Part shown: piece by piece, positions 5,045 through 21,861 of the stretch
Numbering within the stretch: position 1 is the first letter of the stretch
Layout: each line of letters begins with the position of its first letter
Source: an uncultured Mycoplasmatota bacterium
GTDB taxonomy: Bacteria; Bacillota_I; Bacilli_A; RF39; UBA660
Length of the DNA stretch: 64,000 bases
Direction of reading: 5' to 3'
NCBI GenBank assembly: GCA_946497955.1
Contig: CAMMMH010000004.1
Coordinates: 12,314 to 76,313 of the forward strand
Program-made: the position numbers and the translations under genes
Notes under the pieces: generated by a model
What the model was told of the DNA's origin: nothing
Databases searched by the model: none
Seen by the model: the letters and a program-made list of their open reading frames with translations, nothing else

Positions 5045-5366
5045 CTAAATCTCTCCATATCGCTTCATAATAGTAATTAAATTCTTTTTCTTTTCTATTA
5101 TTAAATGGAGTAGAACGATTTTTATAATTAATATCATAAATCTTTTTAACAACACAAGGCCTTTTGGTAAGTACTACAACTTTATCACCTACGCTCAAAG
5201 CTTCTGATAAATCGTGAGTTACCATAATAGCAGTTTTACCTAAGTCTTTAACCATTTTATAAACATCATCTGCAAGCATTACTCTAGTCATGGCATCGAG
5301 TGCAGAAAAAGGTTCATCTAAGAGTAATATATCAGGTTTAGTAGCAAGTGTCCTGATTAGAGCAAC
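5031..5366 (-). pseudogene. ABC transporter ATP-binding protein, C-terminal part (split by element 1)
   Basis: The minus-strand frame reads ...TVALIRTLATKPDILLLDEPFSALDAMTRVMLADD...VTHDLSEAL, covering Walker B, D-loop and H-loop. It lacks Walker A and the signature motif, which are found at 19124-19549. Confidence 0.9.
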
Positions 5367-5386
5367 TGTTTGAATATTGTTAAGAC
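5367..5386. repeat. left terminal inverted repeat / att arm of element 1
   Basis: TGTTTGAATATTGTTAAGAC is the imperfect reverse complement of 19111-19130. The outer 10 bp (TTGTTAAGAC / GTCTTAACAA) match perfectly. Confidence 0.8.
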
Positions 5387-6240
5387 ATAGTACTTTCTAA
5401 CTTTTTATTATCATCTATATATTGATAATTAAGATTATTATTTTTACTAATAACATTCTCTCCAAGTTTTTCTTCTATATCTTTTCTCGTATTACTAGCA
5501 ACTTCGCCACCTGCTTTAGCAATCTTCCTATTTTCACTTAATCCGTAAGGTTTATGCTTTTTAGCAAGCTCACGAGTTGTAATCTCACCTATATCTGCAA
5601 GTAATACTTCTATGTCACTCATATTATCTCTTAAAGATTCTTTTCTAAGACCTTTAAACTCCTTATATTCTTTAGCAGTCATACCAGACCATTCTCTATA
5701 AATATCATTAGTAAGAATGGCATATTCTAAATTACTGTCAACACCATTATCTTTCCATACTTCAGTAAGTTTCTTTCTATCCTGGATACCTTTAATTCTT
5801 TTAATAATCCAATCTTCATCATATCCTTTAGCTCTATAAGTATCAATTGCTCTTTGAAATGCAAGAGAAGGATCAAAAGTTTCATCAATTCTTTCACTAC
5901 CAAGTTTAGCAAGCCACCCTTTTATAGGCTCAGCATTTTTACTAGGTATTGATTCAATAATTCTAAACATCCCCTCAATATCAACAACATCAGTTAAACG
6001 ATATTTACCATCTTGAGCTTTTAATTTTAAAGCGTTACAATTAGTAACGGTTTCATTTCCTTCATCTTTAAGACGCTTTTTTAATACTCTCCAATAAGTT
6101 TGTGGATTAGTACTACCTGTCAAAACTCTAACTATATCAACTACACTAATATAGTATTTTTCTTTTTCATTATCCCAAACAGTTCTAATTGTTTCATTGT
6201 TAAATAACTTATTTACAATATGCATTTTATCTTGATTCAT
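5380..6240 (-). CDS. Bro-N domain / DinD-like (DNA-damage-inducible protein D family) protein
   Basis: 'IRTVWDNEKEKYYISVVDIVRVLTGSTNPQTYW...LKLKAQDGKYRLTDVVDIEGMFRIIESIPSKNAEPIKGWLAKLG' matches the Bro-N/DinD pattern. Start placed at ATG 6240 after a GGAAGGAA SD. Confidence 0.7.
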   Translation of the reverse strand: MNQDKMHIVNKLFNNETIRTVWDNEKEKYYISVVDIVRVLTGSTNPQTYWRVLKKRLKDEGNETVTNCNALKLKAQDGKYRLTDVVDIEGMFRIIESIPSKNAEPIKGWLAKLGSERIDETFDPSLAFQRAIDTYRAKGYDEDWIIKRIKGIQDRKKLTEVWKDNGVDSNLEYAILTNDIYREWSGMTAKEYKEFKGLRKESLRDNMSDIEVLLADIGEITTRELAKKHKPYGLSENRKIAKAGGEVASNTRKDIEEKLGENVISKNNNLNYQYIDDNKKLESTMS

Positions 6241-6613
6241 ATATAATTCCTTCCTTTTCTTTATAATCATACTAACAGCTTAAAACCAAATATTAATTCA
6301 ATAACCATAAATATATCTTTAATATCAACAACAGCAGTGTTACAATATTTACTGCCAGACGATTTAATTATAGTTGTCTAATAATACTAGACAACTCAAA
6401 AACTTTCTCTTTTTTATTAATTTACTTTCCCTCTTAAGTATCACTTCCTTTCCTCCAAAATATTACTTGTTTTAGTTAGAGAGAATTCTTGCAAAATTAC
6501 CAAACACTTTATATCTCCATTAAAAAATAAGATAATATAAAAAACGCGACATCTATCACGTTTAATTTTTACCATCTCTATTAATATAATATGCAGTTAA
6601 ACTATTTTTTTCT

Positions 6614-8173
6614 TCAAAAATTCCACTTTATTTTTATAATTCTAATATTATCTTTAACTTCACCTACATAAATTTTATCTATAAACTCATTAACAATAAC
6701 TCTATTAAGATTATCTAGCTTTTTATATTTAGTGATTATTTTATTATCAAAATCTTTGATATTCTCTTTATAAATGCTAATCTTTTTATTAACATTATCT
6801 AACTGTTTAGAATATCTACCCTTATTATCTTCATAACTACTTACTAAAGTCTTAAACATCTCTAGTGAAATAACACCATTTACTTTATCTTCATAAAGAT
6901 TCTTTAAATAGTTTTTAGACTCATCTATTTTTCTCTTAATACTAACTAACTCACTTTCTAAAGATATTAACTTTCCCTTATATATTTCATTATATTTTTT
7001 ATTTATCTTTTCTTTTAATAACTCTTCATCATAAAATTTATCTAATAGTTTATTAACTTCAAGAAGAACAATACTCACTAACTTATCATATCTAATTGAT
7101 GACTTATTAGAGCAGGTACTATTATTAGAACACACTAAATACTCATGCTTTGAAGAGTTTTTCTTTCTTAAATAATGCTCACATTCTAAACAAAAAACTT
7201 TACCAGAAAACAAATGAACAGTACTACTACCTCTAGGTTTAGTCCTATTTTTCATCTCCCTTTGTACTTTATTAAATGTATCCTCATCAATAATCGCTTC
7301 ATGAGTATTAGGATAACTTATCCATAAACACTTATCTTTATTAATAATTTTATGATTCTTATAACTAACAGTAGTTCTTTTACCCTGTACAAGCTTACCT
7401 AAATAAACTTCGTTTTTAAGTATCGTCTTAATAGCATTACTATTCCATTTAATATCTTCACGAGCTTTATTACTAACCACATTTAACTTTATACCTTGTC
7501 TATATTTATGAAGTGATGGACTTGGTATATTTTTATCATTTAAGTATTTGGCAATAGCAGAGTAGCCATAGCCTTTTAAATAAAGATTAAAGATATCTTT
7601 AACTACTAAACAAGCTCCTTTATCAACAACTAATTTATTATTATTAGAACTATCTACTAAATAACCAAAAGGAGCGAAAGGGGAGATAAACTCACCCTGT
7701 TTCATCTTAGAATTAAAAGCACTTCTAATATTATTAGAAACATCCTCTAAATACCATTCATTAACAAGACCATTAATCTGTCTAGACTTCTTATTACCAG
7801 GATTTTCTGTATCAGCATTATCAGATAAACTAATAAATCTAACATTCCACTCTTTAAACTTATTATTAATATATCTCTCTACAATCTCCATATCCCTTGA
7901 AAATCTAGATTGACTCTTACACAAAACAATATCAATCTTACCATTTTCACAGTCATTAATTAATCTTTCAAACTCTGGTCTATAAGTACCTGCTCCAGAT
8001 AAATCTTCATCACAGTACTCACCAACTAAATTATAACTAGGGTTATTATTAATAACCTCCATTAACATATGTCTTTGATTTTTAATAGATTCACTATCGT
8101 CTAATCTATTTAACTTATCTTTATCTTCAATAGAAAGCCTTAAATAAATAGCTACCTTAAAGACCTCTTTCAT
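6614..8173 (-). CDS. large serine recombinase (resolvase N-domain + recombinase domain + Zn-ribbon + coiled coil)
   Basis: 'VAIYLRLSIEDKD' contains the catalytic Ser. Also present are 'SRFSRD', the recombinase-domain motif 'APFGY', a Cys cluster 'CLECEHY...CSNNSTC' and a Lys/Glu-rich coiled-coil tail. Length 519 aa. Confidence 0.9.
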   Translation of the reverse strand: MKEVFKVAIYLRLSIEDKDKLNRLDDSESIKNQRHMLMEVINNNPSYNLVGEYCDEDLSGAGTYRPEFERLINDCENGKIDIVLCKSQSRFSRDMEIVERYINNKFKEWNVRFISLSDNADTENPGNKKSRQINGLVNEWYLEDVSNNIRSAFNSKMKQGEFISPFAPFGYLVDSSNNNKLVVDKGACLVVKDIFNLYLKGYGYSAIAKYLNDKNIPSPSLHKYRQGIKLNVVSNKAREDIKWNSNAIKTILKNEVYLGKLVQGKRTTVSYKNHKIINKDKCLWISYPNTHEAIIDEDTFNKVQREMKNRTKPRGSSTVHLFSGKVFCLECEHYLRKKNSSKHEYLVCSNNSTCSNKSSIRYDKLVSIVLLEVNKLLDKFYDEELLKEKINKKYNEIYKGKLISLESELVSIKRKIDESKNYLKNLYEDKVNGVISLEMFKTLVSSYEDNKGRYSKQLDNVNKKISIYKENIKDFDNKIITKYKKLDNLNRVIVNEFIDKIYVGEVKDNIRIIKIKWNF

Positions 8174-8289
8174 TCTAAACTCATCTCAAGAGTAGTAATA
8201 ATTCTATATAATTTATCATTAATTAATTTTCTTAACTCATTATCACTAATAGATTTATCATATTCACATGAAACATTATAAGAACACAT
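8170..8289 (-). CDS. 39-aa ORF translationally coupled to the recombinase (not in the ORF track)
   Basis: GAGGAG SD, then ATG at 8289. Product MCSYNVSCEYDKSISDNELRKLINDKLYRIITTLEMSLE. Its TGA overlaps the recombinase ATG as ATGA. Confidence 0.4.
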   Translation of the reverse strand: MCSYNVSCEYDKSISDNELRKLINDKLYRIITTLEMSLE

Positions 8290-8338
8290 AAAAAATCACT
8301 CCTCATTAATCTATATTAAAAAAAGAAGTGATTTATTA

Positions 8339-9160
8339 TTAAACAGAAACATGAATAAAACTATTCAAATAATTTAATACAATATCAATCGCTTCGTCTA
8401 CAGGTATTCCTAGCCAATTATTATTAGCTAGACTCAATATTCTCTTATAACCTGTATTATTTAAAATATTTGTTATTCTATTAATAATATCACTTATATT
8501 GTTTTCCTTCATATTCTTATCATTAAATATTAATAGTTCAAAACATTTAAGTAATTTGCTTTTATCAAGCATTGTATTTTTTATTAAATAACAGAAATCA
8601 AATATATCTTTATATCTCGTTGATCTTATTCCAAATTTTAATAAAGATTTCAATTTTTCTGTAAAGATCTGTTCTTTAGAATTAACAAGTAAACTTACTT
8701 CTTTATCAAGTATGGTTAAATCGAAAAACAACTCATCTTGTTCTATCTCCAAATACTTATTAACTCCTATATCTAATTTTGTGTTTATAATATTATTAAA
8801 TTTATCTTTAATTGATATATTTAATCTTTTACCATCATAGTCTTGATGCTGTAGTTTTTCTATATTTCCTATTATTTCAATAGTTATACCATCATTAACA
8901 GTATTTAATATATTAATAAATTTAACTATTGATGTATTATCTAATGAATATCTAATAAAATCTAAATCTAAATCTCTAGTTGCTCTACGAATATCTTTAG
9001 ATATATTATGTATTACAACTCCACCTTTAATAGTAATATTATTCTTAAAATTGCTCTTATAAATTTTATCTAATATAATATCTTGGCACACCTTAGAAGA
9101 CGCCTCTATTCTTTTATACCCTAATTTTACATATTTATCTGTTAAATCGTTTAAATTCAT
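8339..9160 (-). CDS. abiEii: AbiEii/AbiGii-family nucleotidyltransferase toxin (type IV TA / abortive infection)
   Basis: The N-terminal 'ITIKGGVVIH...RRATRDLDLDF' matches the DUF1814 NTase motifs (KGG...R.T.DLD.). It directly abuts the AbiEi-like gene with no gap. Confidence 0.75.
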   Translation of the reverse strand: MNLNDLTDKYVKLGYKRIEASSKVCQDIILDKIYKSNFKNNITIKGGVVIHNISKDIRRATRDLDLDFIRYSLDNTSIVKFINILNTVNDGITIEIIGNIEKLQHQDYDGKRLNISIKDKFNNIINTKLDIGVNKYLEIEQDELFFDLTILDKEVSLLVNSKEQIFTEKLKSLLKFGIRSTRYKDIFDFCYLIKNTMLDKSKLLKCFELLIFNDKNMKENNISDIINRITNILNNTGYKRILSLANNNWLGIPVDEAIDIVLNYLNSFIHVSV

Positions 9161-9742
9161 TTAAAATACCTCATCCATTAAAATTTTATAAAATTTTTCA
9201 CCCTCTTTAAAAACATTTAAATATTCTTCAATTAATGACATATCTAACTCATCAATAATCTTCCTATAATTTGTTATAATTTCTTTATATAAATCATATC
9301 CAATTTTATTTTTATAACGTACTAAGTCAATTAGTAATCTTTCTTTATTATATATTTTTATAGTTACTCCTTCGTATTCATATGAAGTTATTCCTAATAT
9401 ATATAATTCATCTTTCATTCTAATTTGTTTAATTTCATTATTATTAATATTAGTGGAATTCCTACTAGTACATAATGTAATCTTTTCTGGAATGACATCT
9501 GTAAATCCATAATAATAATAAGCTGATAGACCACTAACTACAGCATAAGGATACTTTTTCTCTATTATAGATAGATAATGAATATTTGGTTGTTCGGAAT
9601 ATATCCCACTTTCTATTTTATAAATAGATTTGTTTTTTAAAGCCTTTTTTAAATTATAGTCTGATTTAAATTTCTTTATTACCTCATTATAATTATATAA
9701 CACTCTTACCACCTGATATAATTTTAAAGTAAAAATCACCAT
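9161..9742 (-). CDS. abiEi: AbiEi-family antitoxin / transcriptional regulator
   Basis: 'YKIESGIYSE...YAVVSGLSAYYYYGFTDVIPEKITLC' resembles the AbiEi_4 pattern, and the gene is paired with AbiEii. An alternative start is GTG 9703, preceded by an AGGTGG SD. Confidence 0.65.
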   Translation of the reverse strand: MVIFTLKLYQVVRVLYNYNEVIKKFKSDYNLKKALKNKSIYKIESGIYSEQPNIHYLSIIEKKYPYAVVSGLSAYYYYGFTDVIPEKITLCTSRNSTNINNNEIKQIRMKDELYILGITSYEYEGVTIKIYNKERLLIDLVRYKNKIGYDLYKEIITNYRKIIDELDMSLIEEYLNVFKEGEKFYKILMDEVF

Positions 9743-9833
9743 TAGTCAATAGAAATGGTGGCTTTTACTTTAAAAATGTAACGAAGACTAACCAATATAA
9801 TAAAAGAAGTGATTTAGTACTTAAAAATAAATA

Positions 9834-10448
9834 TTAATTATTAAGAACTTTCATAATCTCATCATCACTAATAGGTCCATGTCTTTGAATATTTATATCA
9901 TCACTAGTAAGATCAACTATTGTACTAGCTTCTCCAAAAGAAACATCACCCATAACCATACCATCAAGAGTAGGGCATTCTTCTTCTATCTCATCTAAAC
10001 TTCTACATACATTCATTCCCGATTTATTAGCACTCGTTAAAAATAAAGGACTTCCAACTTTATCAATTAGTTCATTTAAGAATTCAGATGGAATCATCCT
10101 AATAGCAAGTTCATCTGTCTCTCTTGTACCAACATTATTAATATATGAAAATGCCTCAGGCCTTTTATTTAAGACTAAAGTAAGAGGTCCAGGCATAAAA
10201 GCTTTAATTAGCTTAAAAGCACGCTCATCAACAGCTGCTATACTTTTAATTTGTTCTAAATCTTTACAAAGAACAGGAAAAGACTTATTAGAAGGACGAT
10301 GTTTAACTTTTACAAGGTTTTGATAAGCCTTACTAGAATTAATCCTCGCACATATTCCATAAACAGTATCAGTAGGTATACTAATAACCCCATCATTTTT
10401 AAGAATAGTTGAAACTTCTTCTATTTCACTTTGTTTATATCGCTTCAT
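9834..10448 (-). CDS. L-threonylcarbamoyladenylate synthase family (TsaC/YrdC-domain-only) protein
   Basis: 'ISIPTDTVYGICA...K.RPSNKSFPVLC...PGPLTLVL...IRMIPSEF...GSPLFLTSANKSG' are YrdC/Sua5-domain hallmarks. At 204 aa there is no Sua5 C-terminal domain. Confidence 0.8.
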   Translation of the reverse strand: MKRYKQSEIEEVSTILKNDGVISIPTDTVYGICARINSSKAYQNLVKVKHRPSNKSFPVLCKDLEQIKSIAAVDERAFKLIKAFMPGPLTLVLNKRPEAFSYINNVGTRETDELAIRMIPSEFLNELIDKVGSPLFLTSANKSGMNVCRSLDEIEEECPTLDGMVMGDVSFGEASTIVDLTSDDINIQRHGPISDDEIMKVLNN

Positions 10449-10582
10449 AAATTCACCTCTGTTTAAAGATTTGTATCACTCTCTAATAAGACTTGCAAGC
10501 AATGTTGAAAGAAAAACACAGATATTGCATTTATCTATCTTGAATGATAATATAAAATTAATCTAGAAGAGAGTGTGTTGAT

Positions 10583-11326
10583 ATGTTAAAAAATATTGCA
10601 GGAACAACTATAAAAATAAAGTTCAAAGATGAAATGATAGAACTTCCAAAAAACGCAAAAAAACAAATTAATATTTTTTGGAAACAAAGTAAGGAAAGTA
10701 ATCCTAGTCTTTTTAATGGTGAACTAATTTGTGTAAGTGAATATAAGGAATCAAATGACTTAATAGAGATTACTTGTAAAAGAACATCTTATGCTCATCA
10801 TTTATATGATGAAAGAGTAGGACTACCTAAAGAATATGGGTGTCATAACTTAGTGGTAGGATGCCTATTAGAAACTAGTGATAATTATTATGTAATAGGG
10901 GAAATGACAAGTAATACTTCAGTTCCTAATTATCTACAAATACCAGGAGGTAATGTTGATAATACTGATATTAAAGAAGGTAGAGTAGATATATTAAATG
11001 CTCTAATAAGAGAATGTAGAGAAGAAGTAAATATTAATTTACAAGATAAAAATATGGTAGATAGTTTTGGAATAAAATATATAAGTCTACCAAATGAAAA
11101 ATCTAATGCTTACTTAATTATCGCTAAAGGTAATTTAAAAAAGACTAAAAATGAAATGCTTGAATACTACAAAGAATATTTAAAATACTTAAAAGATAAT
11201 AATTTAGAAGTAGAATTTTCTAACATACACTTTATAAATAAAAATAAAGCTCTAGAAGAATTAAATAACTTAAAAAATCCTAAAAGAAATTATTTAGAAG
11301 ATTTATTAGAAATAGATAGTAAATAA
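10583..11326 (+). CDS. NUDIX-family hydrolase (divergent Nudix box)
   Basis: 'IPGGNVDNTDIKEGRVDILNALIRECREEVNI' contains REUxEE (RECREE), with a longer-than-canonical spacer before it. Confidence 0.55.
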   Translation: MLKNIAGTTIKIKFKDEMIELPKNAKKQINIFWKQSKESNPSLFNGELICVSEYKESNDLIEITCKRTSYAHHLYDERVGLPKEYGCHNLVVGCLLETSDNYYVIGEMTSNTSVPNYLQIPGGNVDNTDIKEGRVDILNALIRECREEVNINLQDKNMVDSFGIKYISLPNEKSNAYLIIAKGNLKKTKNEMLEYYKEYLKYLKDNNLEVEFSNIHFINKNKALEELNNLKNPKRNYLEDLLEIDSK

Positions 11327-11339
11327 TAAAAAAAGATAG

Positions 11340-12662
11340 TTATTTTATATTTTTACTATCTTCTTTTTTAACAAATTGATGTCCTGCAGTTACTTCGATT
11401 GCTTTGTCAATAAAGTTATTAATATTCTCTTTATATAATAATAGTACTTTCTTAGTAGTTTCAATAACTTCTTCTTCCTCAATACATAAAAAATCTGCAA
11501 TTGATTCTGTAGAAAAGTATTTATTATCAACATAACCTAGTCTTAAACAAATAATAATTGCTTCTTTAACCGATAAAGTGTTAAGCACATCACTAAATTT
11601 TAAACTTTTCATAATATCTAATATTTTTATATAATCATCTTTTATTGATAAAGGCTGTGTTTTTTCATCAGTAGTGTTAACACTATGTTCTAAAGACATT
11701 CCATCTTCGGTATCTTGAACATTTCCTTTTTTACCTAAACTTGATAACATACTTCTCATTTTGGGCATAAGCCACCCATAAAATCTAGATGATTTATTTT
11801 TATCAAAATCATCATTTTTAACAGGAGTTTCCAAATCATATCCATATCTAGAATATAATAATTCTTTTTCACTATCTGAAAGTCTTGAAATAACGTCATT
11901 AATTTCTTCTTTACTATATTTATTAAAATATTCATATATATTTTTTAATTTTCTAGGCATTTTGCTTTCCTTCCTATCTCTAATTCTTTTTTCACTAATT
12001 TCATCTACAATTCCTAATTTAATTAATTCTTTTTTAATTCTAATTACATTTTTTTTAATTAATTCATATACATAATTGTGAGAAATTTTAAATTTTTTTG
12101 CAATTTCACTTTGAGTATATACTTTATCATCATTAAAGCCAAAATAAAGTGATATAATTTCTCTATCTCTATCAGGTAATTTATTAACTAGTTCCCTAAC
12201 TACTTTATTAGTATCATAGATTTCAAACTCTTCGACGAAACCAACAGTTTCATCAATTAGAGCATCCTCTAAGGTAAATTCCTTCACGTCACTATCATTT
12301 TTTAAGTATCCATTTAAACTTTTATTAGATATATGTTTTTTCTCTTTTTGCAAAAAATTATTAATTTCATATCTGATACACGTACCAGCATAAGTAGAAA
12401 AATTTATATTTTTTTCGATATCAAAAGTATCTACACCTTTTATTAATCCTAAAAAACCAACAGCTACAAGCTCTTCTTTATCATATGGATTATTATTATA
12501 TTTCTTTAACACAGTACTTAAAACAAGCCTAATGTTATGTGTAATGACTATTTCTCTAGCTTCTAAATCACCATTACGATATTTTTTTATATATTCAATA
12601 ACTTCATCATTTTTTAAAGGAGCAGGTAAATCACAAGAAATAAATAATTTGTTGTCTAACAT
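11340..12662 (-). CDS. sigma-70 family RNA polymerase sigma factor with ~210-aa C-terminal extension
   Basis: Region 2-like 'REIVITHNIRLVLSTVLKKY...ELVAVGFLGLIKGVDTFD'. Region 4-like 'DREIISLYFGF...TQSEIAKKFKISHNYVYELIKK'. The extension has two further region-4-like segments (SDSEKELLYSRYGYD; SVKEAIIICLRLGY...STESIADFLCI). Confidence 0.7.
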   Translation of the reverse strand: MLDNKLFISCDLPAPLKNDEVIEYIKKYRNGDLEAREIVITHNIRLVLSTVLKKYNNNPYDKEELVAVGFLGLIKGVDTFDIEKNINFSTYAGTCIRYEINNFLQKEKKHISNKSLNGYLKNDSDVKEFTLEDALIDETVGFVEEFEIYDTNKVVRELVNKLPDRDREIISLYFGFNDDKVYTQSEIAKKFKISHNYVYELIKKNVIRIKKELIKLGIVDEISEKRIRDRKESKMPRKLKNIYEYFNKYSKEEINDVISRLSDSEKELLYSRYGYDLETPVKNDDFDKNKSSRFYGWLMPKMRSMLSSLGKKGNVQDTEDGMSLEHSVNTTDEKTQPLSIKDDYIKILDIMKSLKFSDVLNTLSVKEAIIICLRLGYVDNKYFSTESIADFLCIEEEEVIETTKKVLLLYKENINNFIDKAIEVTAGHQFVKKEDSKNIK

Positions 12663-12728
12663 AATAACCTCCTTTAAATTTATATATACAATACCACAAA
12701 TATATTAGTTTTACAATATAAGTTTTTC

Positions 12729-12782
12729 TTGACGATTGAATACATATTCAACTATAATATAAATAGTTGAGTAAATATTCAA
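12729..12782 (+). promoter_or_regulatory. cad operon promoter with two ArsR/SmtB-type inverted-repeat operators
   Basis: -35 TTGACG (12729-34) and -10 TATAAT (12753-58). A perfect IR TTGAATA-CA-TATTCAA (12736-51) lies between them. A second IR TTGAGTA-AA-TATTCAA sits at 12767-82. Confidence 0.65.
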
Positions 12783-12816
12783 CCATAAACAAATAATATA
12801 AATAGGAAGTGATAAT

Positions 12817-13179
12817 ATGTCTAGAAACGAATTTTCATGTGATTGTAATATCATTCATAAGGAAGCAGTGGATAAGGTATTAAATAAAATGCCTTCAGAA
12901 AATACTTTTAATCATCTAGCAGATTTATTTAAACTAATAGGTGATACAACAAGATGTAGAATACTTTTTTCACTCGATCAAGACGAAATGTGTGTATGTG
13001 ACTTAGCCAATGTTTTAAATATGACTAAATCAAGTGTTTCTCATCAATTAGCAACCTTAAGAAGAAGTGGAATAGTTAAATGTAGAAGAAGTGGTAAAGA
13101 AGTATATTACACTCTAGATGATGACCATATTGTTAAATTATTTGAAATAGGACTAGAACATATTAATCATAAAGGATAG
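12817..13179 (+). CDS. cadC: ArsR/SmtB-family metalloregulator (CadC-like)
   Basis: N-terminal Cys pair 'CDC', the 'EMCVCDL' metal site and the wHTH 'KSSVSHQLATLRRSGIV'. It sits immediately upstream of a Cd/Zn-type P-type ATPase. Confidence 0.8.
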   Translation: MSRNEFSCDCNIIHKEAVDKVLNKMPSENTFNHLADLFKLIGDTTRCRILFSLDQDEMCVCDLANVLNMTKSSVSHQLATLRRSGIVKCRRSGKEVYYTLDDDHIVKLFEIGLEHINHKG

Positions 13180-13194
13180 AAAGAAGGAAAGAAT

Positions 13195-13419
13195 ATGAAA
13201 GATTATAAATTTAAAATAGAAGGATTAGACTGTGCTAACTGTGCTAACGAATTAGAAGAGTCACTAAGAAAGATTGACTTAATAGAAAATGTCTCTATTA
13301 GTTTTATGATGGAAAGACTTACTTTTAGTTGTAATGAAGATAACTTAAATAGTGCCTTAAAACAAATTAAAAAAACTATAAAAAGAGAAGAACCTGATGT
13401 TACAATTGAGGAGGTATAA
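13195..13419 (+). CDS. stand-alone heavy-metal-associated (HMA) domain protein
   Basis: 'GLDCANCANELE' CxxC ferredoxin-like fold motif. The ORF ends 2 nt before the ATPase ATG, which has its own GAGGAGG SD. Confidence 0.75.
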   Translation: MKDYKFKIEGLDCANCANELEESLRKIDLIENVSISFMMERLTFSCNEDNLNSALKQIKKTIKREEPDVTIEEV

Positions 13420-13421
13420 TT

Positions 13422-15275
13422 ATGACTAAAAAGATGAAGAGAAAGTTAATTAGGATTATTATATCTTTTATCTTATTAGTAATAGCATTTATCTTAAAAT
13501 TAGATAACACTATTATCAATAACATTTTATTTATTACATCGTACATAATAGTAGGTTATGACATCATCTTAAAAGCTTTAAGAAATATAACAAGAGGAAA
13601 GGTTTTTGATGAAAACTTCTTAATGACTATTGCCACTATAGGAGCCTTTTTTATAGGAGAGTTTCCTGAAGCAGTAGCAGTAATGCTTTTCTATCAAGTA
13701 GGAGAACTATTTCAAAGTTATGCTGTTGATAAATCAAGAAAATCAGTTTCAGAATTAATGGATATAAGACCAGATTATGCCAATCTTTATCAAAATAACA
13801 AGACTGAAAGAGTAGATCCTAATAAAGTCAAAGTTGGGGATATTATCTTAATAAAACCAGGAGAAAAAATACCTTTAGATGGTATAGTAGTAGAAGGTAA
13901 CTCTCATCTTAATACTCTTGCTTTAACAGGAGAATCTATGCCAAAAAGTGTAACTGAGACTGATGAAGTATTAAGTGGATGTATTAATAATGAAGGAATA
14001 CTAAAAGTTAAAGTAACTAAAGAGTTTGGTGAATCTACTGTTAGTAAAATCTTAGACTTAGTAGAAAATGCTAGTAGTAGAAAATCTAAATCAGAAAACT
14101 TTATCAGTAAATTTGCTAAATATTACACTCCAATAGTTGTAATAATCGCTATTCTTCTTGCATTTATTCCACCTATAGTATTAGATACTAACTTTAAAAC
14201 TTGGATATATCGTGCTTTATCATTCTTAGTTGTTTCATGTCCTTGTGCCTTAGTAATATCAATACCCCTAAGTTTTTTTGCAGGAATAGGTGCGTCATCT
14301 AGAATAGGAGTTTTAGTAAAGGGTAGTAACTATTTAGAAGCCCTTGCAAACACTGAAATAGTTGTATGTGATAAAACAGGAACTCTAACAGAAGGAATCT
14401 TTAAAGTCCAAAAAGTTAATGCTATAGATTACTCAAAGGAAGATTTATTAAAATATACAAGTTATGCAGAGAACTATTCTAACCATCCTATCGCCTTATC
14501 TATTAAAGAAGCTTATGGTAAAGATATTAATGAAAAAATAGTTACTAAAACTAAAGAACTTAAAGGTAAAGGAGTTATTGCCAAAGTAGATTCTAAAGAA
14601 GTTCTAGTAGGTAATGAGAAATTAATGGAAGAGTATAATATTGACTATAAAAAGAGTAATGATATAGGAACTGTTATTTATATCGCTATTGATAAAACTT
14701 TCGCCGGATCTATCACTATCTCTGATAAGATAAAAGAAGATGCTTATAAAGCAGTTAAAGAATTTAGAAGAAATAATGTTAAGAAAATAGTAATGTTAAC
14801 AGGAGATAGAGAAGAAATTAGTAAAAATGTCTCAAAAGAATTAAAGCTAGATAATTACTATGCTGAACTACTTCCTCAAGACAAAGTTAAAAAAGTAGAA
14901 TCTTTAATGCAAGAAAAAAGTATAGATGGTAAACTAGTATTTATAGGAGATGGTATTAATGATGCTCCTGTTCTTGCCTTGTCAGATATTGGTGTAGCGA
15001 TGGGAGGACTTGGTAGTGATGCCGCAATAGAAGCAGCAGATATTGTTATTATGACAGATGAGCCATCTAAACTAGCAAGTGCCATTAAAATAAGTAAGAA
15101 GACGATGCAAATAGTTAAAGAAAATATAATATTCGCTATCACAGTTAAAATACTTGTCTTACTACTAAGTGCTATAGGTATCGCTTCAATGTGGGCAGCC
15201 GTATTCGCCGATGTAGGTGTTTCTGTTATCGCCATTATTAATGCTTTAAGAATATTAAGAGTAAAGAAGGATTAG
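13422..15275 (+). CDS. cadA: P1B-2-type (Cd/Zn/Pb) heavy-metal-translocating P-type ATPase
   Basis: 'SCPCALVIS' (CPC), 'DKTGTLT', 'GDGINDAP' and the TM8 motif 'ADVGVSVIAIINALRIL' (DxG, typical of the Zn/Cd subgroup). Confidence 0.85.
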   Translation: MTKKMKRKLIRIIISFILLVIAFILKLDNTIINNILFITSYIIVGYDIILKALRNITRGKVFDENFLMTIATIGAFFIGEFPEAVAVMLFYQVGELFQSYAVDKSRKSVSELMDIRPDYANLYQNNKTERVDPNKVKVGDIILIKPGEKIPLDGIVVEGNSHLNTLALTGESMPKSVTETDEVLSGCINNEGILKVKVTKEFGESTVSKILDLVENASSRKSKSENFISKFAKYYTPIVVIIAILLAFIPPIVLDTNFKTWIYRALSFLVVSCPCALVISIPLSFFAGIGASSRIGVLVKGSNYLEALANTEIVVCDKTGTLTEGIFKVQKVNAIDYSKEDLLKYTSYAENYSNHPIALSIKEAYGKDINEKIVTKTKELKGKGVIAKVDSKEVLVGNEKLMEEYNIDYKKSNDIGTVIYIAIDKTFAGSITISDKIKEDAYKAVKEFRRNNVKKIVMLTGDREEISKNVSKELKLDNYYAELLPQDKVKKVESLMQEKSIDGKLVFIGDGINDAPVLALSDIGVAMGGLGSDAAIEAADIVIMTDEPSKLASAIKISKKTMQIVKENIIFAITVKILVLLLSAIGIASMWAAVFADVGVSVIAIINALRILRVKKD

Positions 15276-15277
15276 AT

Positions 15278-17458
15278 ATGAAGAAAATAGTTTTAAAAAT
15301 AGGGGGAATGACTTGTAGTGCCTGTTCATCAGGCCTTGAAAAATATTTAAACAAACAAGTTGGAATAACTAGTGCCACTGTTAATCTAGTCTTATCTATC
15401 GCTACTGTTTACTATGAAAATATAACAGTCAAAGATATCGAAAGATATATTAAAGAAGCAGGTTTTACCAGTCTAGGCGAATTTAAGGGAATAGAAGATA
15501 AAGTCACTAATGAAACTGATAAGATAAAATTAATTCTTTTAGGACTATTAATTATCTTTATGATGTATATATCTATAGGAAATATGTTAAACCTCCCAAG
15601 CATCCCTTATCTTAATCACAAATATCCTCTTGTTTTATCCACAACTCTGTTGATAATTACTTTCGTATATTTAATTTATGGACTAGATATTATAAAAAGT
15701 GGTATAAAGAATTTACTCCATAAGATGCCTAACATGGATACCCTTGTTATGTTTAGTGTCATCTTTAGCTTTCTCTATAGTCTTTATAGTTACATAAATA
15801 TCTTACAAGGAAATAACACTTTACTTCATAATTTATATTTTGAATCTACTTGTATGGTAATTTACTTTATTAAACTAGGTAGAGTATTAGAAGACTCTAG
15901 TAAAGATAAAACTAAAGATGCTATTAGAAAGTTAGTACAAATAACTCCTACTTATGCCACTATAAAAAAGAATGATAAAGAGTTAAAAGTAACTATCGAT
16001 GAAGTAGAAGTAGGAGATACATTAATTTGTAAAGCAGGAGAAAAAATAGCTGTTGATGGCACTGTTACTAAGGGTAAAACCTATGTTAATGAAAGTTTTA
16101 TCACAGGAGAAAGTGCCCCAGTTTTAAAAGAAAAAGGTTCAAATGTCATCGCTGGTTCTATTAGTTATGACGGACTTATTGAATATACTGCCAAGAAAAT
16201 AGGGAAAGACTCTACCATCTCAGAAATAGTAAAACTAGTAGTAGAATCTACTAATACCAAAACTAAAATACAACGTCTTGCCGACAAAGTAAGTGGCATC
16301 TTTGTTCCTGTTATTTTAATAATTGCCTTCTTAACATTTATAATCCAGATACTTATAGGTCTATCTTTAGAAGAATCACTAATTCATATGGTAACAGTCT
16401 TAGTAGTCGTTTGTCCTTGTGCCTTAGGACTTGCCGTACCCCTTGTTGTAGTTGTAAGTAATGGACTTTGTGCTAAGAAAGGCTTATTCTTAAGAAATAG
16501 TGAAGTCTTAGAGAAAGCTAAAGATATTGATACTATTGTCTTTGATAAAACAGGAACCCTTACCTATGGTAATTTAAAAGTCTTTAAAACTTATAATTAC
16601 TCTAACTATAAAGATAATGATTTAATTAATATTGTATCTAATATAGAAAATAACTCCTCTCATCCTATAAGCACAGCTTTTAAAGTTAAAAAGAAGTTAG
16701 TTGTAACTGATTTTAAAACTTTAGATGGTAAAGGGGTAAAAGCAAGTATTAATAACAAAGTTTATTATTTAGGAAATAATACTTTATTAAAAGATTTAAA
16801 AATAAAAGATAATCATAAAGAAGACTATAATAATTTAATAAATAATGGCTGTAGTATTATCTATGTAATAGAAGAAGGTATTGTTATTGGTCTAATAGGT
16901 GTAAAAGATATAGTTAGATCTAATATAAAAAATGTTATAACTGAGTTTAAAGATAATAATATAGAAGTAATTATGTTAACAGGAGATAATGAAGTAACTG
17001 CTGAGTCTATTGCAAAAGAGTTAGGTATAACTAAAGTAATATCTAATGTCTTACCAAAGAAAAAAGCCTCTGTTATTAAAGACTTAACTAACAAAGGTAA
17101 AAAAGTAATAATGGTAGGAGATGGTATTAATGATGCCCCTGCTTTAGTAAATGCCACTATTGGTATAAGTGTTAATGATGGGACAGATGTTGCTATGGAC
17201 TCTGCTGATGTCATCCTTATGAATAACGATATTTCTAATATTTTAGACCTTATTAAAATAAGTAAAAAAGCATATCTCATCATTAAAGAAAACTTATTCT
17301 GGGCTTTCTTCTATAATTTACTTATGATACCTATCGCTATTGGATTATTAGAAAACTATGGAATAAGCATGAGTCCTATGTTTGCAAGTATTGCTATGAC
17401 TATAAGTAGTTTAACTGTAGTTATAAACTCTTTAAGACTTAGTAAAATGAATTTGTAA
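15278..17458 (+). CDS. copA: P1B-1-type copper-translocating P-type ATPase
   Basis: N-terminal HMA 'GMTCSACSSGLE', 'VCPCALGLA', 'DKTGTLT', 'GDGINDAP', TM7 'FYN' and TM8 'AMTISS' (MxxSS), which are Cu(I) signatures. Confidence 0.85.
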   Translation: MKKIVLKIGGMTCSACSSGLEKYLNKQVGITSATVNLVLSIATVYYENITVKDIERYIKEAGFTSLGEFKGIEDKVTNETDKIKLILLGLLIIFMMYISIGNMLNLPSIPYLNHKYPLVLSTTLLIITFVYLIYGLDIIKSGIKNLLHKMPNMDTLVMFSVIFSFLYSLYSYINILQGNNTLLHNLYFESTCMVIYFIKLGRVLEDSSKDKTKDAIRKLVQITPTYATIKKNDKELKVTIDEVEVGDTLICKAGEKIAVDGTVTKGKTYVNESFITGESAPVLKEKGSNVIAGSISYDGLIEYTAKKIGKDSTISEIVKLVVESTNTKTKIQRLADKVSGIFVPVILIIAFLTFIIQILIGLSLEESLIHMVTVLVVVCPCALGLAVPLVVVVSNGLCAKKGLFLRNSEVLEKAKDIDTIVFDKTGTLTYGNLKVFKTYNYSNYKDNDLINIVSNIENNSSHPISTAFKVKKKLVVTDFKTLDGKGVKASINNKVYYLGNNTLLKDLKIKDNHKEDYNNLINNGCSIIYVIEEGIVIGLIGVKDIVRSNIKNVITEFKDNNIEVIMLTGDNEVTAESIAKELGITKVISNVLPKKKASVIKDLTNKGKKVIMVGDGINDAPALVNATIGISVNDGTDVAMDSADVILMNNDISNILDLIKISKKAYLIIKENLFWAFFYNLLMIPIAIGLLENYGISMSPMFASIAMTISSLTVVINSLRLSKMNL

Positions 17459-17531
17459 TTGACAAAATAACACATCATGTTGACACTCAATAATTCTTAT
17501 GATATGTTGATAAAAATGGAGATGTAAATCA

Positions 17532-18224
17532 ATGATAGAAAAAGTAAAATATCAAGTAAGTGAATTATTAAATAAAGATAAATCTGGCCACGGAATGGAT
17601 CATATAAATAGAGTTTTAGAGTTATCTTTGAGATTTGCTGAAAAAGAAAAAGCAAATAAAGATATTGTTTCTCTAATAGCATTACTTCATGATGCAGATG
17701 ATTATAAGCTATTTGGAATGGACAATGCTAGAAATTTAACTAATACTAAAAGAATTATGAATGATTGTAATATAGATAAAAACATACAAGACCAAGTATG
17801 TTGTGCTATTAAAAATATTGGATATAGAAAAAGACTAAAAGGTTACGCACCAACAACACTAGAAGGAAAAATAGTATCTGATGCTGATATGTGTGATGCA
17901 TTAGGTGCCCATGGTATTTTAAGAGATTATAAGTATGTTATGGAATATGGAAAACCATTTTTTGACAAGAAAATATTTCCAACTGAAGATACAAATAAAG
18001 ATAAATCTCTTGAGAAATGTTCTAATAGTTGTGTATGTCACATATTTGAGAAAATATTAAAACTTAAATATTTAATGTTAACAGAGTCAGGAAAAGAAGA
18101 AGCTAAATCAAGGCATCAAATTGTTGTAGAATTTTTATATCATTTTTTTGATGAAGAAAATGTTCCAGAATGGACAGAGTATTTAAATGAGTATTTGAAA
18201 AATATAAATTATATGTTAAACTAA
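17532..18224 (+). CDS. HD-domain phosphohydrolase
   Basis: 'GHGMDHINRV' and 'ALLHDADDYK' supply the H...HD metal ligands. Confidence 0.7.
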   Translation: MIEKVKYQVSELLNKDKSGHGMDHINRVLELSLRFAEKEKANKDIVSLIALLHDADDYKLFGMDNARNLTNTKRIMNDCNIDKNIQDQVCCAIKNIGYRKRLKGYAPTTLEGKIVSDADMCDALGAHGILRDYKYVMEYGKPFFDKKIFPTEDTNKDKSLEKCSNSCVCHIFEKILKLKYLMLTESGKEEAKSRHQIVVEFLYHFFDEENVPEWTEYLNEYLKNINYMLN

Positions 18225-18244
18225 TAGGCACAGGAGGTACATTT

Positions 18245-18466
18245 ATGGAAAAACTTACACAGGAAGAACTTAATATAATATTAGAAAATATTAATCATAA
18301 TATGGCAGAATATGATAAAGATATAAAAAGAAAAATGGAACACTCAGACAAAGTAGAATTAGATATGTATAAAGTAAATCCTGCATTTTTGAATCAAGGA
18401 AATACTGATACAGCTAGTAATACACATAGTAGAGTGAAAAGAATAAAACATAGAAGTAGATTTTAG
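18245..18466 (+). CDS. hypothetical protein (73 aa)
   Basis: ORF with a GGAGG SD. No recognisable motif. Confidence 0.35.
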   Translation: MEKLTQEELNIILENINHNMAEYDKDIKRKMEHSDKVELDMYKVNPAFLNQGNTDTASNTHSRVKRIKHRSRF

Positions 18467-18557
18467 TCTATTTCTTTTTTTGTTATGAGTAAAACAAAAC
18501 TGCTTGACATTAAGTTACTCCAGTGATACTGTTATATCAAATGAGGAGGTAACAAAT

Positions 18558-19076
18558 ATGAAAAGATTAAATTCATTCCTTTATACCAAAGGGAAATTTG
18601 GTAAAGGTTGTATAAGAAGTGTTGATACTAACAATGAATATTTATATTCTAAGGCAATGTATAAGACAAAAATAAAAAAAGAAGATCTTCCAGATGATTA
18701 TATTGAATTTAGGAGTGGCACTATACGATATATGACAGGATATTTAAAAACAAGTGGAGTTGTTGATATAGACTATACATATTTTTTAGAAAATCATATA
18801 TTTAAAGATGATTATTTATATATATCGTATAAAGGAAAACTAAAGAAAGAAAAAACGTCATATGGAAGAGAACGTATTGTTAATTATGATATCTGTATCT
18901 GTGATAATGATATTATACCTATTTTACATGCTATAGAAAAGAATTCTAATATTAATATAGATAAAGTTAAAGAAAAAATATATTATAAAGTATCTTGGTA
19001 TAAAGAAAATTGTAAAGATGAATATACAAGAGAATTTGGTAATAGAGATATAGATATATTTGAAGAATATAAATAA
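18558..19076 (+). CDS. hypothetical protein (172 aa)
   Basis: Start moved to ATG 18558 after a GAGGAGG SD. No recognisable motif. This is the last gene before the right end of element 1. Confidence 0.45.
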   Translation: MKRLNSFLYTKGKFGKGCIRSVDTNNEYLYSKAMYKTKIKKEDLPDDYIEFRSGTIRYMTGYLKTSGVVDIDYTYFLENHIFKDDYLYISYKGKLKKEKTSYGRERIVNYDICICDNDIIPILHAIEKNSNINIDKVKEKIYYKVSWYKENCKDEYTREFGNRDIDIFEEYK

Positions 19077-19107
19077 CTTAGTAATTAATTTTTACTAGGT
19101 TATTTTT
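19077..19107 (+). terminator. rho-independent terminator just inside the right att arm
   Basis: 8-bp stem CTTAGTAA / TTACTAGG (one G-U pair), 7-nt loop, followed by TTATTTTT. Confidence 0.55.
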
Positions 19108-19110
19108 CGT

Positions 19111-19130
19111 GTCTTAACAACACTCAACCA
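19111..19130. repeat. right terminal inverted repeat / att arm of element 1
   Basis: GTCTTAACAACACTCAACCA matches the reverse complement of 5367-5386 at 17/20 positions. Confidence 0.8.
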
Positions 19131-19549
19131 ACTCTTTGTCTCATACCACCAGATAAACTCCTAGGAAACTTATCAATAAACTCACTTAAACCATAAGTAT
19201 CAAGTAATTTTAAGACATAAGCTTTATCTTCCATACTTACTTTACCTTTTAATTTAAGACCCAATAGACAGTTATCTAAAATATTAAGCCAAGGAAATAA
19301 ACTATCTTTTTGAAGCATATAACCAAGCTTTATATCTTCCTTAGAAAACTTTATATCACCACTACTTTTTGTTTCTAAATTAGCAAGTATTGATAACAGT
19401 GTACTTTTACCACATCCACTTGGTCCTACAATTACAATAAACTCTCCCTCATTAACACTAAGATTGATATCTTTAATCGCTTCTATTTCACCACTTTTAT
19501 CTTGATAATTTTTAGATAAATGTGTAATTTCTAAAATATCATTTTTCAT
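19124..19549 (-). pseudogene. ABC transporter ATP-binding protein, N-terminal part (split by element 1)
   Basis: Walker A 'GPSGCGKST', a Q-loop and the signature 'LSGGMRQRV'. Two element-derived codons later (V-G) there is a stop. Walker B is missing and is found at 5031-5366. Confidence 0.9.
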
Positions 19550-20089
19550 ACATCAAGTCACTAAATGGAACTTTACTATCTAATTCTCCTGCATTAATCA
19601 TAATATCTTGTAAGTGGTCAAATTCTTCTTCACTAAACTCAGTTGTTTTAGACCATGCATCAATAGATCTATAACGCTCTACAATCTTTGTTAAATCATC
19701 AATTGATGTATCAGGGAATTGATCTATTATCGCTTCTGCTATCTTCTCATCAGAACTATTATGAACAAAGTCAATTCCCTTTTGAATCGCTTTCTCAAAG
19801 TTATCAATTAGTTCTTTGTTCTCATTTAAATAACTATCTCTTGCAAAGAAAGCAGTATAAGGAACAACACCACCAAGTTCACCTAAACTTGCAACAACAT
19901 AACCATAACCTTCTTTTTCTAACTCTAAAGCATTAGGTTCAAACAAAGCGACAAAGTCACCTGTCCCTCCAATAAAGGCACTACTCATAGCAGAGAAAGC
20001 TACAGAAGTATCAATATTAACATCCTTCTTAGGGTCAATTCCAGCATCGCTTAAAGCCCATTCAAGAGTCATTTCAGGCATACCACCTC
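19539..20089 (-). pseudogene. NMT1/ThiY/SsuA-like ABC substrate-binding protein, C-terminal part (split by element 2)
   Basis: The frame is open from the junction: (stop)GGMPEMTLEWALSDAGIDPKKDVNID.... There is no signal peptide or N-terminal lobe. The complementary N-terminal part is at 23084-23548. Confidence 0.85.
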
Positions 20090-20108
20090 ATCGGTAGTTA
20101 AACTTATA
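20090..20108. repeat. left terminal inverted repeat / att arm of element 2
   Basis: Contains GTTAAACTTATA (20097-20108), the reverse complement of 23085-23096. Confidence 0.8.
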
Positions 20109-20153
20109 ATACTTTTATTTATTAAAATACATAAAATTAATTAGGTGGTTAAA

Positions 20154-21807: not shown

Positions 21808-21861
21808 TGAAAAATATAGGTAAATATGGTAAAATATTAACAAGAGAGAAGGTGGTATCTT

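Follow-up and report, generated by a model that had tools for sequence, protein, structure and literature searches.

A 13.8-kb island with a large serine recombinase splits an ABC ATPase gene in Candidatus Onthousia and belongs to a family of elements sharing this site

The DNA considered here is a 64,000-nucleotide stretch (hereafter the window; G+C content about 27%) of contig CAMMMH010000004.1 from Candidatus Onthousia, an uncultured gut bacterium. Window positions 5365 and 19132 are the ends of a 13.8-kb mobile island, element 1, which lies within the gene for the ATPase of an ABC transporter and separates the 5' part of this gene from the 3' part (Table 1). Element 1 contains 15 open reading frames (ORFs), 14 of which were listed in a first-pass annotation of this DNA made without database searches; the fifteenth is a small ORF, denoted orf39. 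One end of the element is occupied by orf39, the gene for a large serine recombinase (LSR) and a gene for a Bro-N domain protein, and the rest encodes a predicted AbiE pair, a TsaC/Sua5 family protein, a Nudix-like protein, a sigma factor, a set of metal-efflux proteins with their regulator, an HD domain protein and two orphans.

Table 1. Features of element 1 and of its junctions with the host gene. Coordinates are window positions. Evidence is given as E-values or bit scores, the latter with the cut-off of the model in brackets, or as stated. The last column gives the number of loci with the gene among 28 loci of the close LSR clade (see text), some of which are cut by contig ends. Names beginning with L denote the loci and contigs compared; L001 is a contig with the uninterrupted ATPase gene.
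Feature	Coordinates	Strand	Evidence	Loci of 28
3' fragment of split ABC ATPase (Walker B to C-terminus, host DNA)	5031..5366	-	in-frame join; 95% nucleotide identity to L001 gene	
attL: AC core (5365-5366) and element-side 20-nt arm TGTTTGAATATTGTTAAGAC	5365..5386		same junction in about 20 related loci	
Bro-N domain protein, 296 aa	5380..6270	-	Pfam Bro-N 2.8e-08; PDC-S13 4e-114; phrog_15286 2.8e-103	25
Bro-N 5' relic, 62 nt, 77% identical to 5947-6008	6291..6352		direct repeat in the LSR-Bro-N spacer	
Large serine recombinase, 519 aa	6614..8173	-	Resolvase, Recombinase, Zn ribbon and DUF4368 domains	28
orf39, conserved 39-aa ORF, ATGA overlap onto LSR start	8170..8289	-	frame conservation across loci	28
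AbiEii nucleotidyltransferase toxin	8339..9160	-	Pfam PF08843 2.6e-18; PADLOC AbiEii 1.9e-103	2 (AbiE)
AbiEi antitoxin/regulator	9161..9742	-	PADLOC AbiEi 6.6e-64	2 (AbiE)
27-nt inverted repeat, 85% complementary, across AbiEi start	9717..9780		repeat search	
TsaC/Sua5-family L-threonylcarbamoyladenylate synthase, 204 aa	9834..10448	-	TIGR00057 160.8 bits (123.2); Pfam 7.6e-45	24 (0 of 64 sister loci)
Nudix-like protein, 247 aa, divergent Nudix box	10583..11326	+	Pfam NUDIX 20.7 bits (21.1)	9
Sigma-70 family factor, SigK/SigE-like regions 2 and 4	11340..12662	-	Pfam regions 2 and 4; NCBIfam SigK/SigE below cut-offs; phrog_351	1 at count threshold; diverged or partial copies in L017, L021, L023
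ArsR/SmtB (CadC-type) metalloregulator	12817..13179	+	NF033788 93.2 bits (55)	23
Stand-alone HMA metal-binding protein	13195..13419	+	Pfam HMA 1.2e-09	
P1B-2 (Cd/Zn family) P-type ATPase, CadA	13422..15275	+	TIGR01512 517 bits (313.5)	21
P1B-1 copper-translocating P-type ATPase with N-terminal HMA domain, CopA	15278..17458	+	TIGR01511 558.5 bits (397)	
HD-domain phosphohydrolase	17532..18224	+	Pfam HD 1.1e-06; phrog_3921	0
Orphan, 73 aa (orph73)	18245..18466	+	no family match; also in L011 and L034, partial copy in L020	3
Orphan, 172 aa (orph190)	18558..19076	+	no family match; upstream TTG at 18504 would give 190 aa	5
attR: element-side 20-nt arm GTCTTAACAACACTCAACCA and AC core (19131-19132)	19111..19132		sequence reading, arm symmetry, related junctions	
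5' fragment of split ABC ATPase (Walker A to signature)	19133..19549	-	Pfam ABC_tran 3.3e-23; 93.7% nucleotide identity to L001	

The left junction (attL) reads ...GATTAGAGCA-AC-TGTTTGAATATTGTTAAGAC, with the arm on the element side at 5367-5386, and the right junction (attR) reads GTCTTAACAACACTCAACCA-AC-tctttgtctcat, with the corresponding arm at 19111-19130. When the right end is joined to the left end, the result is an attP of about 42 bp (GYCTTAAYARYATTCAWMSAGTTGGTTGWRWRYTRTTAAGAC) with 20-nt arms that match as inverted repeats at 17 of the 20 positions around the AC dinucleotide; with eleven alternative centres the arms match at only 3-9 positions. In the 64 kb there are exactly two copies of the degenerate arm motif GTCTTAACAAYAYTCAAMCA, one on each strand and each at a predicted end, with 0 copies expected by chance (100 shuffles of the window). 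The stretch common to attP and to attB, the site in the uninterrupted gene, is limited to CAACT (5 nt), so that the sequence alone fixes the crossover only to within a few bases. Imperfect inverted arms, a non-palindromic 2-bp crossover and an attB that shares little with attP beyond the core are the features that characterise the sites of LSR elements. Thus, the proposal of the first-pass annotation that the att sites can be reconstructed to the nucleotide, with arms matching at 17 of 20 positions around a non-palindromic AC core and with the stop codon of the Bro-N gene (5380-5382) inside the left arm, agrees in each of these points with the junctions as read here.

Deletion of 5367..19132 yields a 753-nt in-frame gene for a 250-aa ABC ATPase that reads ...LSGGMRQR|VALIRTLATKPDILLLDEPF across the join, so that the break lies between the ABC signature motif and Walker B, exactly where the first-pass annotation had located it. 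The attB falls within the Arg-Val codons of this gene, which encodes an ATPase of the NitT/TauT type. The ORF of the 5' fragment extends 9 nt into the element before it meets a stop codon, and the 3' fragment lacks an in-frame start ahead of Walker B; the transporter is presumably inactive owing to the split ATPase. An intact relative of the repaired protein (97% identity) is encoded on nine metagenome contigs. The six of these that were retrieved (L001-L006, five of them from separate samples) contain an uninterrupted operon for a substrate-binding protein, the ATPase and a permease, with flanks about 94-95% identical to those in the window, and all six match the predicted 80-nt attB at 79 of 80 positions. 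In a BLASTN comparison, window positions 5372 to 4224 and 20081 to 19129 map to adjoining stretches of L001 that overlap by 10 nt only. The empty site for which the first-pass annotation had recommended a search thus exists in relatives, in the very form that deletion of the element restores, and the boundaries are correct to within the CAACT microhomology.

The close relatives of the LSR form a tight group in which all proteins consist of 519 aa and are 85-93% identical. The 28 loci of this close clade were taken from metagenomes (L007-L012) and from one genome per species; the LSR is 87-98% identical in 22 species-level genomes of uncultured gut Bacilli, including those of Candidatus Onthousia excrementipullorum and Ca. 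O. faecipullorum and two complete chromosomes of 1.3 and 1.5 Mb. Every contig that reaches a junction shows the element at the same position, the upstream junction reading ...GGTGGTATGAGACAAAGA-GT-TGGTTGAGTGTTGTTAAGAC and the downstream junction GTCTTAACAATATTCAAACA-GT-TGCTCTAATCAGGAC. The GT is invariant in about 25 related junctions, in which the host flanks hardly differ and the element arms show 0-3 substitutions. This invariance, together with the position of the dinucleotide at the centre of symmetry, identifies AC/GT as the crossover. At 22 of the 28 close loci, and at 53 of 64 loci of a sister clade that is described below, there is an ABC ATPase fragment with its break at residues 136-146.

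Eleven elements with both ends available range in size from 5.2 to 13.8 kb and have the common gene order [variable]-CopA-CadA-HMA-CadC-(Nudix)-TsaC-(AbiE or another insert)-orf39-LSR-Bro-N. The counts in Table 1 divide the cargo into a near-core part, namely TsaC and the metal module, and an accessory part that comprises AbiE, the sigma factor, Nudix, HD and the orphans. In the slot between TsaC and orf39, the window element carries AbiE, and two other loci carry unannotated proteins of 272 or 534 aa that have no Pfam match (L009 1453-2271 and L016 7947-9551, in element coordinates); this slot thus is a cargo hotspot. The search for relatives with different cargo, which the first-pass annotation had advised, shows that the same boundaries enclose different sets of genes, and the 13.8-kb segment was not encountered in relatives without these boundaries. 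Element 1 is a member of a widespread, undescribed family present in Candidatus Onthousia and related gut Bacilli with small genomes.

A much larger group of sister LSRs, most of them of about 537 aa and 63-68% identical to the window LSR, is found at the same target position, in elements with arms of the form GTCTTCACTACATTCAAAGA-GT. The sister gene order is p76, a gene for an AAA_25/DnaB_C-like ATPase, a gene for a Mob_Pre (PF01076) relaxase, an orf39-like ORF, LSR and Bro-N; the relaxase is full length at 25 of the 64 sister loci and at none of the 28 close loci. Upstream of mob, these elements contain a non-coding block of about 300 nt that is rich in inverted repeats (L093, about 7760-8097, with an equivalent at about 25 sister loci), includes the motifs GGGCTATGCCCTAGTGA, TGAAAGTGGCGATA and AGGGGTTnTTAGGGAAC, and is more conserved than the relaxase protein (about 40% amino acid identity); this block is a candidate origin of transfer (oriT). 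A tblastn search with the sister Mob_Pre protein gives no match in the window element or in the 28 close-clade elements, and Pfam, PHROGs and NCBIfam likewise detect no relaxase in the window element. The oriT-like motifs are found at 17-27 sister loci and in none of the window-type elements; the only near-matches (2 mismatches) lie outside the elements, and window-type elements contain no counterpart of the block as a whole. When the window element was searched for a relic of the sister oriT or of the Mob-LSR spacer, only AT-rich chance matches were obtained, apart from the orf39 region. With their MobV relaxase, oriT-like block and RepA-like ATPase, the sisters represent Tn4451-like integrative mobilisable elements (IMEs), and the window clade, which lacks all three, represents a mobilisation-deficient branch of this IME family. 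The TsaC gene and the metal-efflux module stand where the sisters have the Rep/Mob module.

The LSR protein is detected by Pfam models PF00239 (1.1e-22), PF07508 (7.8e-27) and PF13408 (3.5e-08), all above the cut-offs, and thus contains the resolvase catalytic, recombinase and zinc-ribbon domains that typify the recombinases of LSR elements; the YLRLS catalytic motif and a SRFSRD motif are recognisable in the sequence. The nearest annotated relative is TndX of Tn5397, with 32.5% identity over 99% of the length and the same domain order; the closest solved structures are a Clostridioides difficile transposon recombinase domain, SprA and TnpX. A look-up for the exact sequence of this protein returns no record. 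Within the close clade, the ratio of nonsynonymous to synonymous substitution rates (dN/dS) is 0.20, which corresponds to purifying selection.

The orf39 is located upstream of the LSR gene at all 28 close loci and at about 60 sister loci (35-55% identity, without frameshifts), and the motif YN[VI]..D..LK.IIN.KLY.II is common to both clades. An exhaustive search of 1.84 billion representative proteins yields four clusters only, with sizes of 39-49 aa and no fusions. This pattern of conservation suggests that orf39 encodes a real small protein, which would be the best candidate for an accessory or directionality factor of the LSR. The Tn4451 recombinase is bidirectional without a recombination directionality factor (PMC5704250), so that such a factor may be unneeded for the window LSR as well.

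On the other side of the LSR gene, a Bro-N homologue is encoded downstream at 69 loci from both clades, which points to a conserved slot beside the recombinase rather than arbitrary cargo. The window protein matches over its full length the PADLOC candidate family PDC-S13, for which no paper was found in the literature; its single-sequence AlphaFold model is unusable (predicted local distance difference test, pLDDT, 41). Short fragments of Bro-N genes precede the intact gene also in L008, L011, L023 and other loci, and these relics, together with the one in the window, suggest repeated allele replacement. The possibility that Bro-N is an obligatory recombination factor was considered and given less weight in view of these relics, the wide range of identity among alleles within the close LSR clade (53-85%), and the presence of a RhuM-Fic protein in the Bro-N slot of some sister elements. 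The Bro-N gene looks more like a conserved cargo slot, possibly for defence, at the edge of the element.

The assignments of the remaining cargo rest on profile searches with Pfam, PHROGs, PADLOC and NCBIfam. The AbiEi and AbiEii genes abut at 9160/9161 and match the PADLOC models over nearly their full length, as expected for a predicted type IV toxin-antitoxin or abortive infection system; by analogy with the published autoregulation by AbiEi, the inverted repeat at the start of AbiEi is a probable AbiEi operator. The TsaC protein scores above the equivalog cut-off for L-threonylcarbamoyladenylate synthase and contains the KxR and SxN active-site motifs, which makes it a predicted enzyme of the pathway for threonylcarbamoyladenosine (t6A) in tRNA. 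The CadC/CadA and CopA proteins form a predicted metal-efflux module, with the metal specificity read from the family assignments. The sigma factor has a C-terminal extension of about 220 aa beyond region 4 that is not covered by any profile match; by eye, two further region-4-like helix-turn-helix segments are seen in the C-terminal half (window 11340-12035), e.g., LSVKEAIIICLRLGYVDNKYFSTESIADFL. Translation of orph190 probably starts at M19 (18558). This protein has 153 homologues, mostly of 172-177 aa, some of which possess an N-terminal PF24749 extension, and its AlphaFold (AF2) model (pLDDT 92.7) consists of ten beta strands followed by four helices. Comparison of the model with the PDB and with BFVD (viral structures) identifies no match (best E-values of 0.1-0.25, TM-score at most 0.3), so that the orph190 family may have an undescribed fold.

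None of the four profile libraries detects a capsid, terminase, portal, tail, relaxase, coupling-protein, type IV secretion system (T4SS) or replication family in the element. Accordingly, the T4SS genes and the coupling protein of an integrative and conjugative element (ICE) are represented by 0 of the 15 ORFs, and the capsid, terminase, portal, packaging-hijack or replication module of a prophage or phage satellite is likewise missing. The statement in the first-pass annotation that phage, conjugation and replication genes are absent is thereby upheld, and neither the profile searches nor the structure search with orph190 exposed a phage or conjugation module among the orphans. Its list of cargo is recovered by the profiles for Bro-N, LSR, AbiEi/AbiEii, TsaC, the sigma factor, cadC/HMA/cadA/copA, HD and the orphans; the Nudix assignment is weak, falling just short of the Pfam cut-off, and orf39 had been missed.

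Other insertions affect the same transporter operon. A second LSR element of 3 kb (window 20082-23105, about +/-3 nt) splits the NMT1-type substrate-binding gene; it encodes an LSR of 522 aa (20239-21807) and a HipA_C-like kinase of 395 aa (21862-23049), its ends share the inverted motif GTTAAACTTATAA, and it is not found in the empty-site contigs but is present in L008. A third, shorter serine recombinase (422-448 aa, Resolvase and Zn ribbon) is encoded directly after a truncated permease gene in L009 (13759-15105) and in L093 (13694-14962). Thus, all three genes of the operon are targeted, each by a different serine-recombinase element. In L031 (OZ006981), the 3' fragment of the split gene is itself interrupted: a segment of about 5.7 kb (12912-18644), a further insertion, lies between the codons for ABC ATPase residues up to about 194 and those for residues 193-250. 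An Rfam search of the window found no family, and hence no riboswitch that would identify the substrate of the transporter. Serine-recombinase IMEs disrupt dispensable genes (PMC5704250).

Several comparisons bear on the mobility of the family. The presence or absence of the element is polymorphic at about 95% flank identity. The LSR of L031 is 89-93% identical to the others at a host flank identity of about 53%, yet several pairs of hosts that are 97-98% identical in the flank have LSRs that are only 90-91% identical. The cargo is mosaic as well: between L021 (47-3640) and the window (8339-12662), protein identity is 100% for AbiEii, 99.5% for AbiEi and 98% for Nudix, compared with 90% for the adjacent LSR, and the C-terminal part of the sigma factor present in L021 is 99% identical to the window protein. 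Segments with 98-100% identity beside an LSR with 90% identity point to recent recombination between elements. Judging from these sequence comparisons, the element appears to be mobile and not purely vertical in descent.

Tandem arrays are found in this family. In OZ006970, a window-type element (LSR 90% identical) and a Mob-bearing sister IME meet at a GT, and the 3' end of the ABC gene comes after the sister; L031 has the two in the opposite order, with a decaying window-type copy. Accretion with cis-mobilisation, which is documented for other islands (PMC5704250), is the most specific route of transfer suggested by these arrays; uptake of DNA or transduction, followed by recombination through homologous flanks, would likewise account for the discordances between LSR and flank. 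The first-pass annotation had described a non-autonomous island with an unclear transfer route. The description as a cargo island without transfer genes stands, with none of these genes seen either in the element itself or in those other parts of the window that were sampled, and the Mob-bearing sisters and tandem arrays narrow the choice of routes.

Given the directly established boundaries, empty site, family membership, absence of transfer genes, mosaicism of the cargo and tandem arrays, element 1 probably represents a site-specific integrative island that was inserted by its own LSR and belongs to a mobilisation-deficient branch of Tn4451-like IMEs sharing the target. Under this interpretation, the LSR would exchange strands at the AC/GT dinucleotide in the centre of the attP; insertion would split and inactivate the ATPase gene, and excision would restore it exactly. 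The LSR would be active today and able to excise the element, and it could drive both integration and excision, unaided, as TnpX reportedly does, or helped by orf39. The orf39-LSR-Bro-N end would be maintained as the conserved recombination end, and the hotspots would be the places where recombination between elements swaps accessory cargo. Passage between cells could occur through co-excision and cis-mobilisation in tandem with a Mob-bearing sister or through recombination between homologous flanks.

A number of observations weigh against this interpretation. No excised circle has been observed, and the attP junction was found 0 times in JGI metagenome contigs, which contained only 5 integrated junctions, a base too small for this zero to be informative. 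Across 19 loci, the nucleotide identity of the LSR gene is correlated with that of the 1-kb host flank (Spearman 0.53), a partial correlation that leaves room for much of the spread to be vertical. In the L031 tandem, the LSR copy is disrupted and present as two separate ORFs, of 139 and 363 aa. For co-excision of a tandem pair, one of the LSRs would have to accept the arm of the other element, but between the window-type arm and the sister arm at the L018 tandem junction about 10 of 20 positions differ, against about 4 of 20 for other sister arms. No conjugative helper with a T4SS is seen in the window or its flanks. The dN/dS of orf39 in the close clade is 0.56 at a low dS of 0.12, which would fit a conserved regulatory sequence too and suggests that constraint at the nucleotide level might be superimposed on the reading frame. 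Some of these observations are what one would expect of a fixed immobile remnant, i.e., an old insertion that is inherited vertically in the Onthousia lineage with an inactive recombinase: along with the correlated divergence and the lack of a detected attP, there is decay, in the form of the broken LSR of L031, truncated TsaC in L007 and L031, and fragmented Bro-N genes in several loci. Such a history appears distinctly unlikely, given that close relatives retain the uninterrupted attB, that the LSR is full-length at nearly all loci and under purifying selection, that close hosts contain divergent elements and a divergent host contains a close one, that the cargo is mosaic, and that the tandem arrays imply repeated integration at the same site.

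The remaining alternatives are assessed by what the element encodes. As a decayed prophage or a satellite similar to phage-inducible chromosomal islands, packaged by a helper, the element would carry the LSR as a phage integrase, and the LSR indeed matches phrog_95 (integrase, 1.1e-108); Bro-N, the sigma factor, HD and TsaC also have PHROG matches, and Bro-N proteins are common in phages. In a megablast search with the whole element, PLSDB plasmids gave no match and phage records matched in the HD gene only: the region 17535-18187 is 81% identical at the nucleotide level to the terminal 650 nt of MT836804, an unverified 'Bacteriophage sp.' contig from human faeces that has no other match to the window. 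A phage origin is nevertheless very improbable, with no capsid, terminase, portal, tail, primase/replicase or packaging-redirection gene detected by Pfam, PHROGs or NCBIfam, a phage module in 0 of the 11 complete family members, no relative of the LSR among the 2.9 million viral contigs of IMG/VR, a best identity of 34% in phage records, and a plasmid-type MobV relaxase in the sister clade. It is marginally less probable still that the element is a true IME, with a cryptic oriT or an unrecognised relaxase, that depends for mobilisation in trans on a conjugative element at another place in the genome. The closest sister elements are IMEs, and the two orphans, the Nudix-like protein and the sigma extension, none with an assigned function, might harbour such a factor, the fold of orph190 being unmatched; but no library detects a relaxase family, the tblastn search and the search for the oriT-like block are negative throughout the close clade, and the orphans, which occur at so few of the close loci, cannot be the transfer function of the family. 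The least probable explanation, to which hardly any credence is given, is a regulated switch that restores the transporter by excision, like skin in sigK, SPbeta in spsM or the XisF-dependent fdxN element. Exact restoration of the ATPase frame, the best NCBIfam match of the LSR (XisF, although at 117.7 against a cut-off of 375) and the SigK/E-like sigma factor are in line with it. The splitting of the substrate-binding gene here and of the permease gene elsewhere means, however, that one repair would not restore the transporter; moreover, few of the related loci have the sigma factor, and most of these copies are diverged, the content of the elements varies widely, and the hosts have genomes of 1.3-1.5 Mb with no sign here of a developmental programme.

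As a mobilisation-deficient integrative island, element 1 is best compared with Tn4451/Tn4453 from Clostridium perfringens and Clostridioides difficile, IMEs with the LSR TnpX and the MobV relaxase TnpZ; the combination of a serine recombinase with a MobV relaxase is described for Tn4451 (PMC5704250). The similarities include the small size, a single LSR of the DUF4368 type, a 2-bp crossover in short imperfect inverted ends and resistance cargo, and the sister clade has the same LSR and Mob_Pre layout. In contrast to Tn4451/Tn4453, the window element lacks the relaxase and the oriT-like block, the similarity of its LSR to TnpX is confined to the catalytic domain (PDB 2mhc, E 2.8e-10), and the window-type LSR is specific for one position in an ABC ATPase gene, unlike the Tn4451 recombinase with its low integration specificity (PMC5704250). 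Tn5397, despite the resemblance of TndX noted above, is conjugative and uses another target, whereas the window element has no transfer genes and its LSR belongs to a different subfamily, at 32% identity.

A functional parallel is provided by the staphylococcal cassette chromosome (SCC) elements, SCCmec and relatives, which are LSR-moved islands in one conserved gene, carry resistance cargo, lack transfer genes, and form tandem composite arrays at the same att site. The family of the window element shares all these traits, namely movement by an LSR, one target gene, resistance cargo, the lack of transfer genes and tandem arrays. It is not an SCC element, given that the Ccr models NF047343, NF047347 and NF047344 score 65-89 bits against cut-offs of 700-900; furthermore, its target is a disrupted ABC ATPase gene rather than the 3' end of rlmH, and the replication/helicase genes typical of SCC are absent. 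The cis-mobilisable element (CIME) and accretion model of Streptococcus ICE/IME islands (Pavlovic 2004; Bellanger 2011, reviewed in PMC5704250) likewise involves a tandem of a non-transferable island and a relative competent for transfer, both at one att site, as in two complete genomes here. However, a CIME has lost its integrase by definition, and the recombinases concerned are tyrosine recombinases, whereas the window element retains an intact serine recombinase. Thus, element 1 is a serine-recombinase island derived from Tn4451-like IMEs and similar in function to SCC elements; the kind of element is known, and this is a well-resolved new example that leaves the current concepts of mobile elements unchanged.

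A bolder proposal, which we put forward as a rather unlikely one, is that orf39-LSR-Bro-N forms a self-contained bidirectional module whose LSR has evolved for the stretch between the ABC signature and Walker B, among the most highly conserved DNA sequences of bacteria, with TsaC guarding t6A-dependent tRNA function. In this scheme, orf39 may encode a new and very small protein that serves specifically this LSR family as a directionality or accessory factor, and the near-universal TsaC may be not a passenger but a protein that protects or restores t6A-dependent tRNA function against tRNA-targeting toxins or phage attack. If so, the targeting of very conserved ABC DNA by the LSR would open an unusually broad range of potential landing sites and would be usable as a portable integration system.

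With or without this extension, the points of interest are the exact att sites, the targeting of a conserved ABC motif throughout the family, the conserved orf39, and the unexplained near-core TsaC. The base-exact attP/attB pair comes with natural variants for an LSR family of uncultured gut Bacilli and may serve as an integration tool. For the hosts, a single ABC-transporter operon in small genomes is a landing pad for at least three serine-recombinase elements. The family documents a mobilisable lineage that has lost its relaxase and oriT and yet persists and exchanges cargo, including cadmium and copper resistance, AbiE and candidate defence genes; the persistence of this relaxase-less branch is apparently aided by tandem arrays with transfer-competent relatives.

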